A stretch of 5,616 nt of DNA, taken from positions 1 to 5,616 of IMG/VR virus record IMGVR_UViG_2778261085_000003; one strand, written 5' to 3'. The DNA comes from a virus. Lineage: Duplodnaviria; Heunggongvirae; Uroviricota; Caudoviricetes. Numbering within the stretch: the stretch's first letter is position 1; each line of letters opens with the position of its first letter. Under the pieces are notes generated by a model. The model was not told the DNA's origin, did not search any database, and was given only the letters and a program-made list of their open reading frames with translations. A program made the translations under genes and the position numbers. Below are positions 1-4,530 of this stretch, in pieces.

Positions 1-324
1 GGGATGCTTTAAATCACAGGAATTAATGTTGCACTCAGTAAAATGGTTTTTAAGGGGTTCTATTCGAATCCCTTTCTGTTTCATTAACAAGCCAAATCCC
101 TTATCAATGATATCCATTAATTCCATGAAGTATTTTTCATGTAAATCCTGGTTATCAGAGAGTTGCTTCTCTTCGTACAGCCCGATAAAGGCACGACGCA
201 CGTTACCGGATATAGTATCGATGGTTTCTTTTTCTACGGTACTCAGGTCAAGAGTCGCCAGTTGAGAACGAACTATATTCGCTGCCATTTCCTGGAATGG
301 TTTTGGTAAATCTTTAAATTCCAT
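1..324 (-). CDS. Hypothetical protein, partial (N-terminal 108 codons visible; continues beyond left edge)
   Basis: ATG at 324-322 (minus) preceded by GAGG about 6 nt upstream (plus 331-334 region); frame is open on the minus strand all the way to position 1 (no stop, checked triplet by triplet). Translation begins MEFKDLPKPFQEMAANIVRSQLATLDLSTVEKETIDTISGNVRRAFIGLYEEKQLSDNQDLHEKYFMELMDIIDKGF. Not in the supplied ORF track because it has no stop inside the window. Region is AT-rich (41 G+C in the first 120 nt by hand count). Function not recognised. Confidence 0.5.
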   Translation of the reverse strand, partial: MEFKDLPKPFQEMAANIVRSQLATLDLSTVEKETIDTISGNVRRAFIGLYEEKQLSDNQDLHEKYFMELMDIIDKGFGLLMKQKGIRIEPLKNHFTECNINSCDLKHP

Positions 325-346: not shown

Positions 347-565
347 TTAACGTGGGTATGTAATCATTCTGGCAATGCTTAATGCCGCTGCTTTTTCCAG
401 CCTGGTGATATCCTGCTCCAGAGCGGACAGATTTTCAGCCTGCTTAGCCCTGGCTTCATTGGCCCATTTCAAATCCTGCGCTGCATTAATTTTCTGGCGC
501 ATCCACTCATAAAGTTCATCATCGGTATAGTCTGGCGCGATGATGACGGGTTCTCGTTTCTGCAT
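347..565 (-). CDS. ydfC: YdfC-like small prophage protein (72 aa)
   Basis: ORF in track; ATG at 565-563 preceded by GAGGAA about 7 nt upstream; length and position (third small gene downstream of the dicA-like gene, same strand) match the ydfA-ydfB-ydfC arrangement of the Qin prophage as I recall it. Identity is from recalled gene order and length, not from a verified alignment. Confidence 0.7.
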   Translation of the reverse strand: MQKREPVIIAPDYTDDELYEWMRQKINAAQDLKWANEARAKQAENLSALEQDITRLEKAAALSIARMITYPR

Positions 566-594: not shown

Positions 595-723
595 TCAGCC
601 GTTAGATTTTGCCGAACTGGAAAGCGCCTGTTTAAATTCGCTGAAGCTGAGAGCTTCAGCGCCTTCGGCAAGGCTTTCGAAGTATTCTTCGTAAGACTTT
701 TCCATGATTGTGTCGAAATCCAT
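595..723 (-). CDS. ydfB: YdfB-like small prophage protein (42 aa)
   Basis: Not in the ORF track (too short). Minus-strand ATG at 723-721 preceded by AGGTGA; hand translation gives MDFDTIMEKSYEEYFESLAEGAEALSFSEFKQALSSSAKSNG then TGA at 597-595. Acidic, protein-like composition; 42 aa matches the recalled length of YdfB; sits between the ydfA-like and ydfC-like genes. Confidence 0.6.
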   Translation of the reverse strand: MDFDTIMEKSYEEYFESLAEGAEALSFSEFKQALSSSAKSNG

Positions 724-724
724 A

Positions 725-880
725 TCACTCACCTGAGTTTCTTTCCAGCCAGCGACGCGCGCCAGTTTCGGTTTTAAACGTTTTGCTTTTGGTATACGTC
801 ATCGCGGTGAACGTTCCGTCATGGTTGGGAAACACGCCGTATACCAGATATTCGTTGTTACCAAGATCGATAGTATCCAT
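725..880 (-). CDS. ydfA: YdfA-like small prophage protein (51 aa, DUF1391-like)
   Basis: Track ORF 725..934 starts at a GTG; the internal ATG at 880-878 has a better ribosome-binding site (GAGG about 5 nt upstream within AAGGGGAAATGAGGTCAGC) and gives MDTIDLGNNEYLVYGVFPNHDGTFTAMTYTKSKTFKTETGARRWLERNSGE, 51 aa, the recalled length of YdfA. Stop TGA at 727-725 lies 1 nt from the ydfB-like ATG. Confidence 0.65.
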   Translation of the reverse strand: MDTIDLGNNEYLVYGVFPNHDGTFTAMTYTKSKTFKTETGARRWLERNSGE

Positions 881-957
881 GCTGACCTCATTTCCCCTTA
901 ACGCCGGGGCAGCGGAACTGTTTGCTGAGAACACCGTGCGGTGTCTTGATGTAAAGT

Positions 958-986
958 AGATTAGTCATAGCTAACGGCTTGGTCAA
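958..986 (-). promoter_or_regulatory. Candidate sigma70 promoter for the ydfA/ydfB/ydfC-like operon (dicB-operon promoter equivalent)
   Basis: On the minus strand: TTGACC (plus 981-986), 17-nt spacer, TAATCT (plus 958-963). An operator-like palindrome overlaps the spacer and -10; a second lies just upstream of -35. Predicted by eye only. Confidence 0.4.
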
Positions 987-1009
987 GTGTTTTTGTTTGT
1001 CATGGCTAA
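961..1009. promoter_or_regulatory. Pair of operator-like 14-bp palindromic sites (putative DicA-like repressor binding sites)
   Basis: TTAGTCATAGCTAA at 961-974 and TTTGTCATGGCTAA at 996-1009 share the half-site pattern TT(A/T)G(C/T)-N4-(G/A)CTAA with the two sites in the dicA/dicC intergenic region. Confidence 0.45.
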
Positions 1010-1026
1010 CATTTTTGACAGAAAAA

Positions 1027-1054
1027 AAGATAACACATTGATTGTGTTATCTTT
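1027..1054 (-). terminator. Inverted repeat overlapping the dicA-like stop codon; candidate intrinsic terminator for the repressor transcript
   Basis: AAAGATAACACA (1027-1037) / TTGAT loop / TGTGTTATCTTT (1043-1054) is a perfect 12-bp inverted repeat; on the minus strand it is followed by a run of seven T (plus 1021-1027 is a run of A). Stem is AT-rich, so terminator strength is uncertain; it could instead be a protein-binding palindrome. Confidence 0.35.
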
Positions 1055-1454
1055 TGTTTGTTCGTTGACGGGCTTTTAATAATTCTTCAAAGAGTTTGTT
1101 GAAATTTTTTACTCGGGCGCGCATCTCGGTGAGCTGAGCGTCCTGTTCTGATTCAGGCAATGCATTAAAAAGTTCAAGGAGCTCGTGTTCTTTGGGGGAT
1201 AAAGCAACTGGATCCTCAATAGGTGGTGATGGCTGCTTGTCTTCATCGCCAAATAGAATCCATGTTGGCGAGCACTGCAGTACATTGCTAAGTGCAAAAA
1301 GATTCTTCCCTGTTGGTTCGCTATCATCCCGTTCCCATTGTGAAACCGACACATGAGAAATTTTCAGGGCTTTAGCAAGAGACCTTTGGGTGTATTTGAG
1401 GTTTTTTCGGCGATATCTAATGCGTTCGCCAATGGTTAAATTTTTTGTATCCAT
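1047..1454 (-). CDS. dicA: DicA-like repressor (CI-type, XRE-family helix-turn-helix), 135 aa
   Basis: ORF in track; N-terminal helix-turn-helix segment (QRSLAKALKISHVSVSQWERDDSEPTGKNLFALSNVL); length and sequence closely match my recollection of E. coli Qin prophage DicA; divergent from a Cro-like gene across a short operator-bearing intergenic region. Confidence 0.9.
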   Translation of the reverse strand: MDTKNLTIGERIRYRRKNLKYTQRSLAKALKISHVSVSQWERDDSEPTGKNLFALSNVLQCSPTWILFGDEDKQPSPPIEDPVALSPKEHELLELFNALPESEQDAQLTEMRARVKNFNKLFEELLKARQRTNKR

Positions 1455-1536: not shown

Positions 1537-1767
1537 ATGCTTAAAACAGACGCGCTTTTGTATTTCGGTTCAAAAACAAAACTTGCACAAGCTGCTGGTA
1601 TTCGTTTGGCTTCGCTTTATAGCTGGAAAGGGGATCTAGTTCCTGAAGGTCGCGCGATGCGCCTGCAAGAGGCATCCGGCGGGGAACTTCAGTACGACCC
1701 CAAAGTTTATGACGAATATCGTAAGGCAAAGCGTGCGGGGCGGTTGAACAATGAAAATCACCCCTGA
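1537..1767 (+). CDS. dicC: DicC-like Cro-type regulator, 76 aa
   Basis: ORF in track; first gene divergent from the repressor; helix-turn-helix-like segment (GSKTKLAQAAGIRLASLYSWKG); length and sequence match my recollection of Qin DicC. Confidence 0.85.
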   Translation: MLKTDALLYFGSKTKLAQAAGIRLASLYSWKGDLVPEGRAMRLQEASGGELQYDPKVYDEYRKAKRAGRLNNENHP

Positions 1768-2284
1768 ACAGGTTTGTGAGGCTCTGGATGCCTGGGTATG
1801 CCGACCAGGAATGACACAGGAGCAGGCGACGATATTAATCACGGAAGCATTCTGGGCTCTGAAAGAACGCCCGAACATCGATGTTCAACGCGTCACGTTT
1901 GATGATGGCGCGGTTGATCAACGGGCACTGGGCGTTAACCGGGTGAAGATATTCGAACGCTGGAAAGCTATCGACACCAGGGATAAGCGGGAAAAATTCA
2001 CGGCGCTGATTCCGGCAATTATGGAGGCTATCCGGATCAGTGATTTCAGGTTGTATTGTGAAATTACTGACGGAAAAAGCATTACGTACATGATCTCCGG
2101 GTTAAACAAAGAATATGGCGATGTGGTGGAGTCCGGGCTGCTTTTTGCGGATCCAGCTGTTGTGGAACGTGAGACTGACGAGCTTATAGAAAAAGCTATT
2201 GCTTTCAAGCATGCGTATCGTCAGCAATACCAACATTACTTTGCAGATAAACAAATATCTTCCTGGGGTTCGTATGAGTATTGA
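1751..2284 (+). CDS. YdaT-family protein, 177 aa
   Basis: ORF in track; starts 17 nt before the DicC-like stop; the N-terminal MKI... and the segment REKFTALIPAIMEAIRISDFRLYCEITD resemble Rac prophage YdaT (REK..LIPAI..R..C motif) as I recall it; the position after the Cro-like gene is typical of this family. Confidence 0.7.
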   Translation: MKITPEQVCEALDAWVCRPGMTQEQATILITEAFWALKERPNIDVQRVTFDDGAVDQRALGVNRVKIFERWKAIDTRDKREKFTALIPAIMEAIRISDFRLYCEITDGKSITYMISGLNKEYGDVVESGLLFADPAVVERETDELIEKAIAFKHAYRQQYQHYFADKQISSWGSYEY

Positions 2285-3314
2285 TGCACTGCAATGGGCT
2301 AAAAAGGTGAAAACCGGCAGTTCATCAAGTAAGTCAGTATTGACCTGGCTTGCTGATATGTGCGGTGCCGATTTGTGTGCATACCCGTCAGTATCTGCAC
2401 TGGCTGAAGTAACTGAACTGAACAAAAAGACTGTTCAGGACAGCTTACGACACCTGATGGAGATTGGGTTAATTGTTGATACCGGTGAGAGAAAAGGCCG
2501 AACAAAGCAAATCGTGGTGTACCGACTTATCGGTGTAGAAGAAAGTGTTGCCGAGCCTGAATACACCCAAAAACGGGAGTCTTTAAAGGTGGGTAAAATT
2601 GGTGCTGTTAATAAAAACAGTACCGAAAACGGTTATGTTTCAGCACAAAACAGACCCAAAAACGGAACTCTTTTCTGCATGGAAAATAACCAAAGACACC
2701 CAAATTTTCCATCAAAGACACCCAAAAACGGATCACGGAACCCAAAGGAACCAAAAGATCTAAACCCCACACATAACGCACGTGAGAGTGCTCCGACCAG
2801 TGAGCTGGAGGTTTTGTCGTTACAGGCAACGCCCCCTGAATTCCTGGATGGCTTGAGCGAACCTATCGGAAAATTTCCGATGACCAATGGTTGGCATCCG
2901 TCGCCTGATTTTCGACGGCGGGCTGCACTGTGGGGAGTTGCTCTGCTGGAGCCGGAATTTACACCTGCTGAACTTGTCGCATTCCGGGATTACTGGAGTG
3001 ATGAGGGAAAAGTGTTCACGCAGGTTCAGTGGGAGCAGAAATTCGCCCGCCACGTAAATCACGTCAGGGCGCAGGTTAAACCAGTCAGCAAGGGAGTAAA
3101 CCATGCAGCAGCACCAGGTGGCACCGAATCACGGGCAGTTCAGGAAATTCGGGCAGCACGTGAGAAGTGGGAACGTGAAAACAGATTTATCAGCGACGGA
3201 AACGGCCTGGAAGCTGTGGGAACTCATGGGGGAGATTTATTCGAATCGCTGGACCCAGAAGAACGGTGCCGCGCCTACGAAGCTCTGGATTGCACAGATT
3301 GGCGCGATGACTGA
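2274..3314 (+). CDS. Phage replication initiation protein: N-terminal helix-turn-helix DNA-binding domain plus DnaT C-terminal-like domain
   Basis: Track ORF begins at 2199; I prefer the in-frame ATG at 2274, which overlaps the upstream stop (ATGAGTATTGA, stop at 2282-2284). N-terminus (SVLTWLADMCGADLCAYPSVSALAEVTELNKKTVQDSLRHLMEIGLI) looks like a winged helix-turn-helix of phage initiators. The C-terminal segment GKFPMTNGWHPSPDFRRRAALWGVALLEPEFTPAELVAFRDYWSDEGKVFTQVQWEQKFARHV resembles the C-terminal region of E. coli DnaT (..RLAALWGVAL..YW..EGKVF..VQW..) from memory. The 3' end is uncertain because of overlap with the next gene. Confidence 0.8.
   Translation: MSIDALQWAKKVKTGSSSSKSVLTWLADMCGADLCAYPSVSALAEVTELNKKTVQDSLRHLMEIGLIVDTGERKGRTKQIVVYRLIGVEESVAEPEYTQKRESLKVGKIGAVNKNSTENGYVSAQNRPKNGTLFCMENNQRHPNFPSKTPKNGSRNPKEPKDLNPTHNARESAPTSELEVLSLQATPPEFLDGLSEPIGKFPMTNGWHPSPDFRRRAALWGVALLEPEFTPAELVAFRDYWSDEGKVFTQVQWEQKFARHVNHVRAQVKPVSKGVNHAAAPGGTESRAVQEIRAAREKWERENRFISDGNGLEAVGTHGGDLFESLDPEERCRAYEALDCTDWRDD
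2563..2757. repeat. Iteron-like direct repeats inside the initiator gene (candidate replication origin)
   Basis: Exact ACCCAAAAACGG at 2565-2576, 2654-2665 and 2720-2731; variant ACCGAAAACGG at 2622-2632; CAAAGACACCCAAA at 2691-2704 and 2712-2725; GGAACC(C)AAAG doublet at 2737-2757; all in the same orientation, next to an A+T-rich stretch (about 2585-2620). Confidence 0.5.
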
Positions 3315-3768
3315 GCAGCAAATCCGGCAGGTCTGCCGCCAGTGCATGGACCGCTGCCGGGCGGGTGAAACATGGCCTCCTGACCTTGCTGAGTTTGTGG
3401 CGCTGATTTCAGAAAGCGGAGCCAATCCATTCGGTCTGACAGTGGATGCCGTGATGGAGGAGTACCGTCGCTGGCGCAATGAGTCTTGGCGATACGACGG
3501 AAGCGATAAATATCCGTGGTCTCAGCCTGTGCTGTATCACATTTGCCTCGAGATGCGTTCAAAGGGGATTGAGAGCCAGATGACCGAAGGGGAGTTAAAA
3601 CGACTTGCAGAACGGCAGCTGACGAAATGGGCAAAGCATGTTGGTAATGGACTGAGCGTTCCGCCAGTCCGGCGACAACTGGCGGCCCCCAAACGCCCGT
3701 CGGGACCAACGCCAATTGAGTTGCTGAAACAGGAGTATGAACGCCGGAAAGCAGCTGGGTTTGTTTGA
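3103..3768 (+). CDS. Lambda P-like replication protein (helicase loader), 221 aa if started at 3103
   Basis: ORF in track; the ATG at 3103 has a strong ribosome-binding site (AAGGGAG about 6 nt upstream). Recalled lambda P aligns over the body (PDLAEFVAL vs PGQFVAW; YPWSQPVLYHICLEM vs YPWKSNAHYWLVTNL; MTEGELKRLAERQL vs LTDAELRRKAADEL) and weakly from about residue 60 (KLWIAQIGAMTEQQ vs RQWVLAFRENGITTMEQ). Alternative starts are ATG 3226 and ATG 3307 (ATGACTGA overlap with the upstream stop). Confidence 0.7.
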   Translation: MQQHQVAPNHGQFRKFGQHVRSGNVKTDLSATETAWKLWELMGEIYSNRWTQKNGAAPTKLWIAQIGAMTEQQIRQVCRQCMDRCRAGETWPPDLAEFVALISESGANPFGLTVDAVMEEYRRWRNESWRYDGSDKYPWSQPVLYHICLEMRSKGIESQMTEGELKRLAERQLTKWAKHVGNGLSVPPVRRQLAAPKRPSGPTPIELLKQEYERRKAAGFV

Positions 3769-3801
3769 GTTGATAAGTAAGTTTACCGGGAGGAAATTTT
3801 A

Positions 3802-4530
3802 ATGGAGACCGTTTTTGACGCACTGAAAGCAATGGGAAAAGCCTCTTCCCAGGGAGTGGCTGCACGTCTTGGAATGACCAGGGATGAGGCGATTAACGAG
3901 CTGTGGAAACTGAAGCGTCGCGGGGAAGCTGATAACAATGGTCCGATGTGGTGGCTGATTCAGTCCGGAGAAAGCGAATCACATTCACAGGTACCGAAAG
4001 TGACAGCGCAAATGCTGATTGGTGCGATAGAGCAACATGGTCCTAAAACGGCGGATGAGCTGGCATTGATGTTCAGAATCACTTCCCGTCGGGCGAATTC
4101 ATCACTGGTAATGGCAATCAGCAAAGGACGCCTGATTCGCGTAAATCAGAACGGTAAATTTCGTTATTGTATACCTGATGAAAAAATTAACGATATGAGT
4201 GCGGAAAGCACCATGCTGGTGCAAGTAGGTTCGGACACCGACAAAAACGAAAAGCAGAGTGATCGCAATCGTTTTTTGCCAGCCAAAGAGCATGGTCAGA
4301 GAGAAGATACTGTGGCAGACATTGTGCAGCCGCTGCCATCGTTCACCGAAAAGCGAATGAATTACCAGGTTTTACCATCGCTGCATATGGCAAACCGCGA
4401 ACTGCGCCGGGCGAAAAGTCATGTCCAGAAGTGGGAGCGTGTCTGCGCCGTGCTGCGGGAGCTGAACAGGCACCGGGATATTGTCCGACAGATTGTCGAT
4501 TCCTCCAGTCGTATTGTGTCGGAAAAGTGA
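3802..4530 (+). CDS. Hypothetical prophage protein, 242 aa, with two winged-helix-like segments and a basic helical C-terminus
   Basis: ORF in track; strong ribosome-binding site (GGGAGG about 9 nt upstream); protein-like composition. Possibly a DUF1627-type prophage protein, but that assignment is from memory and not verified. Confidence 0.8.
   Translation: METVFDALKAMGKASSQGVAARLGMTRDEAINELWKLKRRGEADNNGPMWWLIQSGESESHSQVPKVTAQMLIGAIEQHGPKTADELALMFRITSRRANSSLVMAISKGRLIRVNQNGKFRYCIPDEKINDMSAESTMLVQVGSDTDKNEKQSDRNRFLPAKEHGQREDTVADIVQPLPSFTEKRMNYQVLPSLHMANRELRRAKSHVQKWERVCAVLRELNRHRDIVRQIVDSSSRIVSEK

Follow-up and report, generated by a model that had tools for sequence, protein, structure and literature searches.

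The window, that is, the whole 5,616-bp stretch of phage DNA analysed here, carries the genes of an immunity region in its left part (Table 1). Over the 1.5 kb around the sites described below, it is 91% identical to dicC-dicA-ydfA-ydfB-ydfC of the Qin cryptic prophage in E. coli K-12, and it shares 95.7% identity with a prophage of strain AVS0193 that looks complete; the intergenic DNA between the repressor gene and ydfA is ~83% identical to K-12. The genes stand in the Qin order, with dicC divergent from dicA, and then ydfA, ydfB, and ydfC on the dicA strand. The repressor shares 93% identity with K-12 DicA over 135 amino acids, and its helix-turn-helix segment, TQRSLAKALKISHVSVSQWER (residues 22-42), is identical to that of DicA. 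Only helix-turn-helix families match this 135-aa protein, in which no peptidase S24 or other self-cleavage domain was found; DicA has likewise been described as having no self-cleavage domain (PMC10448788). Homology and gene order identify the window as a lambdoid immunity region like that of Qin.

To the right of the cro-like gene, a module with an intact look extends from 1751 to 4530. At the left end, the position of the 1-324 gene is occupied in AVS0193, the closest relative, by a hypothetical gene, after which come dicB, ydfD, and genes for an exonuclease and an integrase.

Table 1. Genes and regulatory features of the window, with predicted elements placed by sequence analysis
Feature	Position	Strand	Remarks
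Next operon gene, function not assigned	1-324	-	Runs off the left end of the window
ydfC-like gene	347-565	-	Homology to K-12 locus
ydfB-like gene	595-732	-	Homology to K-12 locus
ydfA, first gene of the operon	725-880	-	DUF1391 (YdfA family)
5' untranslated region of the ydfA operon	881-949	-	Nucleotide diversity 0.026; hairpin at 945-930
Predicted transcription start of the ydfA operon	950-951	-	Placed from the -10 position; A950 within CATCAA
-10 hexamer TAATCT	958-963	-	Plus-strand agatta; TATAAT matched at 3/6
Proximal operator TTAGTCATAGCTAA	961-974		Minus-strand reading TTAGCTATGACTAA; ~-24 to -11
-35 hexamer TTGACC	981-986	-	Plus-strand ggtcaa; invariant in 53 distinct intergenic variants
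A-rich tract CAAAAACAC	987-995	-	Between distal operator and -35 hexamer
Distal operator TTTGTCATGGCTAA	996-1009		Minus-strand reading TTAGCCATGACAAA; ~-59 to -46
Intrinsic terminator, bidirectional	1025-1055	.	13-bp stem; T runs on both strands
Repressor gene, DicA ortholog, 135 aa	1047-1454	-	HTH_3 domain, 4.6e-16
Oa-like site TTAGCCAATGCTAA	1457-1470	.	Adjoins repressor start codon; only the arms in common
Oc-like operator, perfect palindrome TTAGTCATGACTAA	1507-1520	.	20-mer TTGTTAGTCATGACTAACAA at 1504-1523
dicC-like cro gene	1537-1767	+	P22_Cro family
YdaT-like protein	1751-2284		Right-hand module
DnaT-domain replication initiator	2274-3314		Right-hand module
Lambda P-like protein	3103-3768		Right-hand module
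DUF1627 protein	3802-4530		Right-hand module

Operator-like sites and the leftward promoter

Direct reading of the sequence confirmed the two repeats and the minus-strand promoter that the initial annotation had placed downstream of the repressor gene: 961-974 reads TTAGTCATAGCTAA, 996-1009 reads TTTGTCATGGCTAA, and a -35 hexamer, TTGACC (986-981), is separated by a 17-nt spacer from a -10 hexamer, TAATCT (963-958). The two sites had been said to flank this promoter. That description fits the distal site, which lies 9 nt upstream of the -35 hexamer, but not the proximal site, which overlaps the promoter itself, taking in 11 nt at the end of the spacer and 3 nt at the start of the -10 hexamer. 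The distal site has one perfect arm (TTAG) and one defective arm, which is CAAA here instead of CTAA.

The three positions at which TAATCT matches TATAAT include T1, A2, and T6. A generic sigma-70 scan, which demands at least four of six matches in the -10 hexamer, did not call TTGACC-17-TAATCT; a relaxed enumeration of -35/-10 combinations on the minus strand of 881-1060 returned it as the best pair. The CATCAA motif around A950, the predicted start, shows no change in six aligned loci. The A-rich tract between the distal site and the -35 hexamer resembles a proximal UP-element subsite and may function as one, and similar tracts are present in the heteroimmune phages mEp460 (CAAAAAACC) and PPompW (ACAAAAAGC). 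On the minus strand, the transcript of the repressor gene, the stop codon of which is 1047-1049, is ended by the terminator at 1025-1055, and the stem of this terminator carries compensatory changes in relatives (ACACA/TGTGT vs. ACGCA/TGCGT). Since this terminator separates the repressor gene from the promoter, the latter constitutes a separate transcription unit, in agreement with the earlier proposal that the operon is driven from a promoter of its own.

The degenerate pattern TTWGYNNNNRCTAA has exactly four matches in the 5,616-bp window, as against 0.03 expected, but this enrichment test is circular, as the pattern was derived from those same four sites. A less circular search was seeded with the palindrome at 1507-1520, the K-12 counterpart of which, Oc, is bound by DicA, and up to 3 mismatches were allowed. 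Besides the seed, only 961-974 and 996-1009 were recovered, with 2 mismatches each; the resulting 3 hits compare with 0.18 expected, and none of 200 shuffles reached 3. The motif search across a whole prophage that had been suggested as a check was run with TTAGYYATRRCWWA on a 50-kb locus containing an entire related prophage, where matches occurred only at the three homologous places (0.00 expected). No third operator was found at the promoter when 881-1046 was searched with TTAGYYATRRCTAA at up to 3 mismatches. A 3-mismatch operator match inside ydfC (TTAGCCCTGGCTTC, 444-457), of a kind for which 1.49 occurrences are expected by chance, was not considered a site.

The canonical operator family in the window thus has three members rather than the four initially proposed, i.e., 961-974, 996-1009, and 1507-1520. 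The fourth, at 1457-1470, is atypical: it shares only the arms, its centre, CCAATG, falls outside the YYATRR form of the other three, and it has 4 mismatches to the palindrome. The Oa-like site is nonetheless nearly invariant, centre included, since 83 of 87 loci carry TTAGCTAATGCTAA (as read on the window's plus strand); the window has a rare variant, TTAGCCAATGCTAA. The Oc-like operator immediately follows the -10 hexamer of the dicC-like promoter, TTGACT-17-TATTTT. Halfway from the Oa-like site to the Oc-like one, perhaps at the "Om" position, lies TGTTAACA (1490-1497), a palindrome in which the two extended operator arms adjoin and a centre is missing; it is invariant in relatives.

Within the 5' untranslated region, a hairpin can be drawn at 945-930 (GACACC-GCAC-GGUGUU), in place of which Citrobacter has AATCAC-ACGC-AGTGATT. 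The region as a whole folds no better than its shuffles (z = -0.40), and the consensus fold of four sequences contains only a small 4-pair helix, so that an RNA element is not claimed here. An Rfam search of the window gave no match.

Conservation of the layout and variation of the operator centres

The intergenic region between the repressor gene and ydfA was extracted from 87 loci encoding close relatives of the repressor, which yielded 53 distinct sequences. With identities to the window of 81-92%, this region is variable enough to be informative. Among the 53 variants, no change occurs in the TTGACC hexamer, the TGTTAG/CTAA arms, or the central AT of each operator, and TAATCT is nearly invariant, some variants having TAATAT. 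The arms of the proximal site are unchanged in the 39 distinct full-length variants, and the distal site always consists of one perfect and one defective arm (CAAA or CATA). Variation is free in the stretch from the -35 hexamer to the proximal site and in that from the terminator to the distal site. In every locus examined, the centres of the two operators are 35-36 bp apart.

A scan of species-representative genomes provided five loci only, among them Citrobacter (repressor 74% identical) and Serratia (65%). There, the flanks have mostly diverged and the layout is kept, with the distal site upstream of a -35 hexamer TTGCCA or TTGCAA, and the proximal site running into a -10 hexamer TAATCT or TAACAT. 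A 2.5-kb contig assigned to a Collinsella sp. MAG of the Actinomycetota (JAIIUG010000151.1; locus L003) encodes a repressor 93% identical to that of the window, next to the same intergenic region; most likely, the contig is a fragment of an E. coli prophage that was binned wrongly.

The same layout was encountered in phages of other immunity. mEp460, HannyBb, and PPompW possess a near-identical 5' untranslated region of the ydfA operon, and their homology to the window ends at 951-965, that is, at the predicted start and -10 hexamer. Their repressors are 57% (mEp460/HannyBb) and 66% (PPompW) identical to that of the window and differ in the recognition helix. In mEp460, the order is TTGAGTTTTCTCAT, 9 A-rich nucleotides, TTGACG, a 17-nt spacer with an inverted operator copy, and TAAATT. 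The operator family of mEp460 and HannyBb, TTGAG-N4-CTCAA (TTGAGTTTTCTCAA), is unlike that of the DicA type, and a perfect copy of TTGAGTTTTCTCAA is also found in the divergent repressor/cro region of mEp460. HannyBb, which is of the same immunity type as mEp460, was rejected as an independent specificity class. PPompW has an operator family of its own at the equivalent positions (1395-1445 and 1905-1975 of locus L092), in which T-rich centres are enclosed by the TTAG/CTAA arms of the DicA type. In these heteroimmune relatives, the operator family of the leftward promoter recurs in the divergent region. Both heteroimmune groups share with the window a distal operator, a 9-nt A-rich tract, a -35 hexamer, a proximal operator running into the -10 hexamer, and CATCAA, and a six-way alignment shows this geometry to be common to the window type, Citrobacter, Serratia, and the heteroimmune groups. 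The fact that the operators at both promoters co-vary with the repressor while the geometry stays fixed is the strongest computational evidence that these sites would serve as repressor operators.

A feature of the operators that represents the new point of this analysis is the hypervariability of their centres. Positions 5, 6, 9, and 10 are polymorphic in all three canonical operators (965-966, 969-970, 1000-1001, 1004-1005, 1511-1512, and 1515-1516 in the window), and only by transitions, such that the centre always reads YYATRR; about 10 of the 16 possible centres were seen at each operator. The mean nucleotide diversity of these 12 positions is 0.326, as compared with 0.117 for 122 four-fold degenerate sites of the neighbouring genes (permutation p about 6e-5) and with 0.002 for the arms and central AT. 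On a tree inferred from the remainder of the region, the centre positions underwent on average 4.7 parsimony steps, four-fold sites 0.70, and other intergenic positions 0.59, with 0 of 100,000 permutations as extreme. As the sequences are related and recombining, both tests are indicative only. They suggest that the centre bases change recurrently among otherwise near-identical prophages.

Free drift within a purine/pyrimidine constraint, a hot spot of mutation, or selection acting on operator strength could each account for such recurrent change. It is conceivable, although we incline against it, that selection or repressor-dependent mutation keeps re-tuning the strength or specificity of the operators through their centre bases; if so, the set-point of the DicA/DicC switch, or partial cross-immunity, would vary among related prophages. 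PPompW, with the same TTAG/CTAA arms and another centre, hints that the centre could define immunity, and it may be the centre, rather than the arms, that sets the specificity between PPompW and the DicA type.

Proposed repression of the promoter and alternative readings

In K-12, DicA represses dicBp, the promoter upstream of ydfA, and deletion of dicA raises the activity of a dicBp-lacZ fusion 22-fold (PMC10448788); repression of K-12 dicBp by DicA is therefore established. The fused fragment comprises 113 bp (primers O-PR241/O-PR242), beginning within the dicA terminator and ending where the 5' untranslated region starts (PMC10448788). Located in the K-12 locus and then aligned, it maps to 934-1046 of the window and holds both homologous sites together with TTGACC-17-TAATCT, the hexamers and operator arms being conserved. 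The junction of the dicBp-lacZ fusion made within the locus (primer O-PR124) follows TAATCTTGTTTGCA, which corresponds to A950 in the window. The DicA operators of Qin at dicBp are credited to Bejar et al. (1988), as cited in PMC10448788, and each promoter is said to have three operators (Ragunathan et al. 2023, PMC10448788), as against the two found within 3 mismatches at the promoter of the window. In vivo, the 20-mer Oc (TTGTTAGTCATAACTAACAA) is bound by DicA, and binding is lost when one A in an arm is replaced by C (Yun et al. 2012, PMC3441716). By alignment with K-12, Oc is 1504-1523 of the window and Oa is 1457-1470. Oc carries the same arms as the operators of the window, where the proximal and distal sites are each 2 mismatches from the Oc-like palindrome.

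The initial annotation held that the arrangement mirrors the control of dicB by DicA. The relation goes beyond a mirror, as the locus is the ortholog of the dicA-ydfA intergenic region of K-12 Qin, and the suggestion that the repressor controls an early-left-type operon gains support from the orthology of DicA and from the 22-fold response of the K-12 dicBp fragment. We consider it highly probable that the element is the PL-type early-left promoter of a Qin-like prophage, orthologous to dicBp, with two operators for a DicA-type repressor. The regulatory logic itself, that of the DicA/dicB switch, has already been published for E. coli K-12. The elements themselves, their conservation, and their co-variation with the repressor type are documented here, and binding at 961-974 and 996-1009 and a start at 950 are predicted.

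In the mechanism proposed, a repressor dimer would bind 14-bp sites of the form TTAG-YYATRR-CTAA. With A950 taken as +1, the proximal site would extend from -24 to -11, the -10 hexamer from -13 to -8, the -35 hexamer from -36 to -31, and the distal site from -59 to -46. Because the proximal site extends from the spacer into the -10 hexamer, where it covers the first three bases, a dimer bound there would overlap the footprint of RNA polymerase and keep the enzyme off the promoter, and repression is most likely exerted by such occlusion. The distal site most likely aids occupancy, either by binding cooperatively or by denying the polymerase its upstream contacts on the A-rich tract, and it probably also serves the Cro-like DicC. 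At 35 bp, or ~3.3 helical turns, the spacing departs from the same-face arrangement that is classical for cooperative dimers, so that the distal site may act through cooperativity or through hindrance. Upon loss or inactivation of the repressor, transcription would proceed from near 950 through ydfA, ydfB, and ydfC and into the leftward genes, which in relatives include dicF, dicB, ydfD, an exonuclease gene, and an integrase gene.

It might be argued that only the proximal site works as a repressor operator and that the distal site is mainly a DicC target or a weak auxiliary site that contributes little to repression. The conserved defective arm of the distal site (CAAA/CATA) and a spacing that is off-phase for cooperative binding would suit this reading, as would the report that K-12 Oa and Om, both of which depart from the Oc form, are unbound by DicA in vivo (PMC3441716). 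ChIP-seq of DicC, described in a 2024 preprint, led moreover to sites being inferred on either side of dicA, one of them downstream of the gene, with the palindromic motif TT(A/C/T)G ... C(G/A/T)AA (PMC11430063); the match of this motif to the operators fits the favoured reading as well. We regard this reading as doubtful, because the distal site is invariant in its perfect arm TGTTAG, its central AT, and its 9-nt distance from the -35 hexamer, because Citrobacter, Serratia, and the two heteroimmune groups have retained these features, and because deletion of dicC leaves dicBp activity unchanged in K-12 (PMC10448788).

The possibility that the sites are bound by DicC or a host factor, with the DicA-type repressor acting indirectly, is remote. 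Compared with Oc, which DicA binds, the sites are altered solely in one arm or at centre positions where change is tolerated, the 113-bp K-12 fragment responds 22-fold to deletion of dicA and not to that of dicC, and in heteroimmune phages the operator changes together with the recognition helix of the repressor. What speaks for it is that the sole direct in vivo binding evidence on that side of dicA concerns DicC (PMC11430063), and that YjdC was reported as a regulator of DicA targets when DicA is absent (PMC11430063). The Reg-Seq paper, moreover, rates the DicA site for dicB as low-evidence and its location as unknown. Another source gives the dicB operon as the sole DicA target and provides no coordinates (PMC8249747). 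When the literature was searched for ChIP peaks of DicA at ydfA, the data described in text were those for DicC only.

An unused TTGACC-17-TAATCT, with the real ydfA promoter elsewhere or with read-through from the repressor gene, is also very improbable. In its favour, the -10 hexamer is weak (3/6) and the generic scan missed the promoter, yet this is the best minus-strand candidate in 881-1060, its -35 hexamer is invariant and its -10 hexamer nearly so, a strong terminator precedes it, and the K-12 fragment that starts inside the terminator still has promoter activity. Finally, apart from the shortness of the sites, nothing favours the notion that the repeats are chance matches or functionless relics, which is effectively refuted by the comparative data, given the motif statistics, an arm diversity of 0.002 beside highly variable positions, and an architecture conserved across genera and immunity types.

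Significance and comparison with known systems

With a repressor-controlled leftward promoter as the favoured reading, the window carries a complete DicA/DicC-type switch including its left promoter, which helps to predict the prophage genes that are silent in a lysogen, among them cell-division inhibitors located further left in relatives. To the published logic, the present analysis adds the position, to the base, of both operators with respect to the promoter, backed by Citrobacter, Serratia, and two heteroimmune groups, evidence that this architecture is a fixed feature of DicA-family immunity modules, and the hypervariable operator centres, a possible way for prophages to tune the switch.

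The closest known system is dicBp of K-12 Qin, which has the same order (dicC, dicA, terminator, promoter, and ydfA-ydfB-ydfC) and the same hexamers, arms, and spacing. The two are unlike in their operator centres and in the defective distal arm, which reads CAAA in the window and CATA in K-12. In addition, the replication module on the right of dicC looks intact in the window, whereas K-12 Qin is truncated there (ydfX pseudogene), and the window thus probably comes from a less decayed prophage.

The PL/OL regions of lambda and P22 likewise contain a repressor-controlled leftward early promoter beside the immunity genes, with the proximal operator between the -35 and -10 hexamers. OL has three adjacent operators, one of them over the -35 hexamer, and the same operator family recurs at the rightward cro promoter; a Cro-like protein acts as a second repressor, the repressor bears a C-terminal self-cleavage (peptidase S24) domain, and nutL and N follow the promoter. 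The window resembles these phages in having a leftward early promoter by the immunity genes, a proximal operator between the hexamers, a shared operator family, and a Cro-like protein. It departs from them in that its two operators are 35 bp apart with neither over the -35 hexamer, its repressor gene points towards the promoter with a terminator in between, and its 135-aa repressor has no self-cleavage domain. Neither an N gene nor a nut site was recognised after the promoter, where the first genes are ydfA, ydfB, and ydfC and a conserved 5' hairpin, with no Rfam match, is present.

The operators of phage 434 are 14 bp long, with a conserved outer 4 bp (ACAA/TTGT) and a variable centre that is not contacted. 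Those of the window are similarly palindromic sites of 14 bp, in which the outer tetranucleotides (TTAG/CTAA) do not vary and the 6-bp centre does. Unlike the 434 operators, to which they are unrelated in sequence, they keep a strict pyrimidine-pyrimidine-A-T-purine-purine pattern in their centres.
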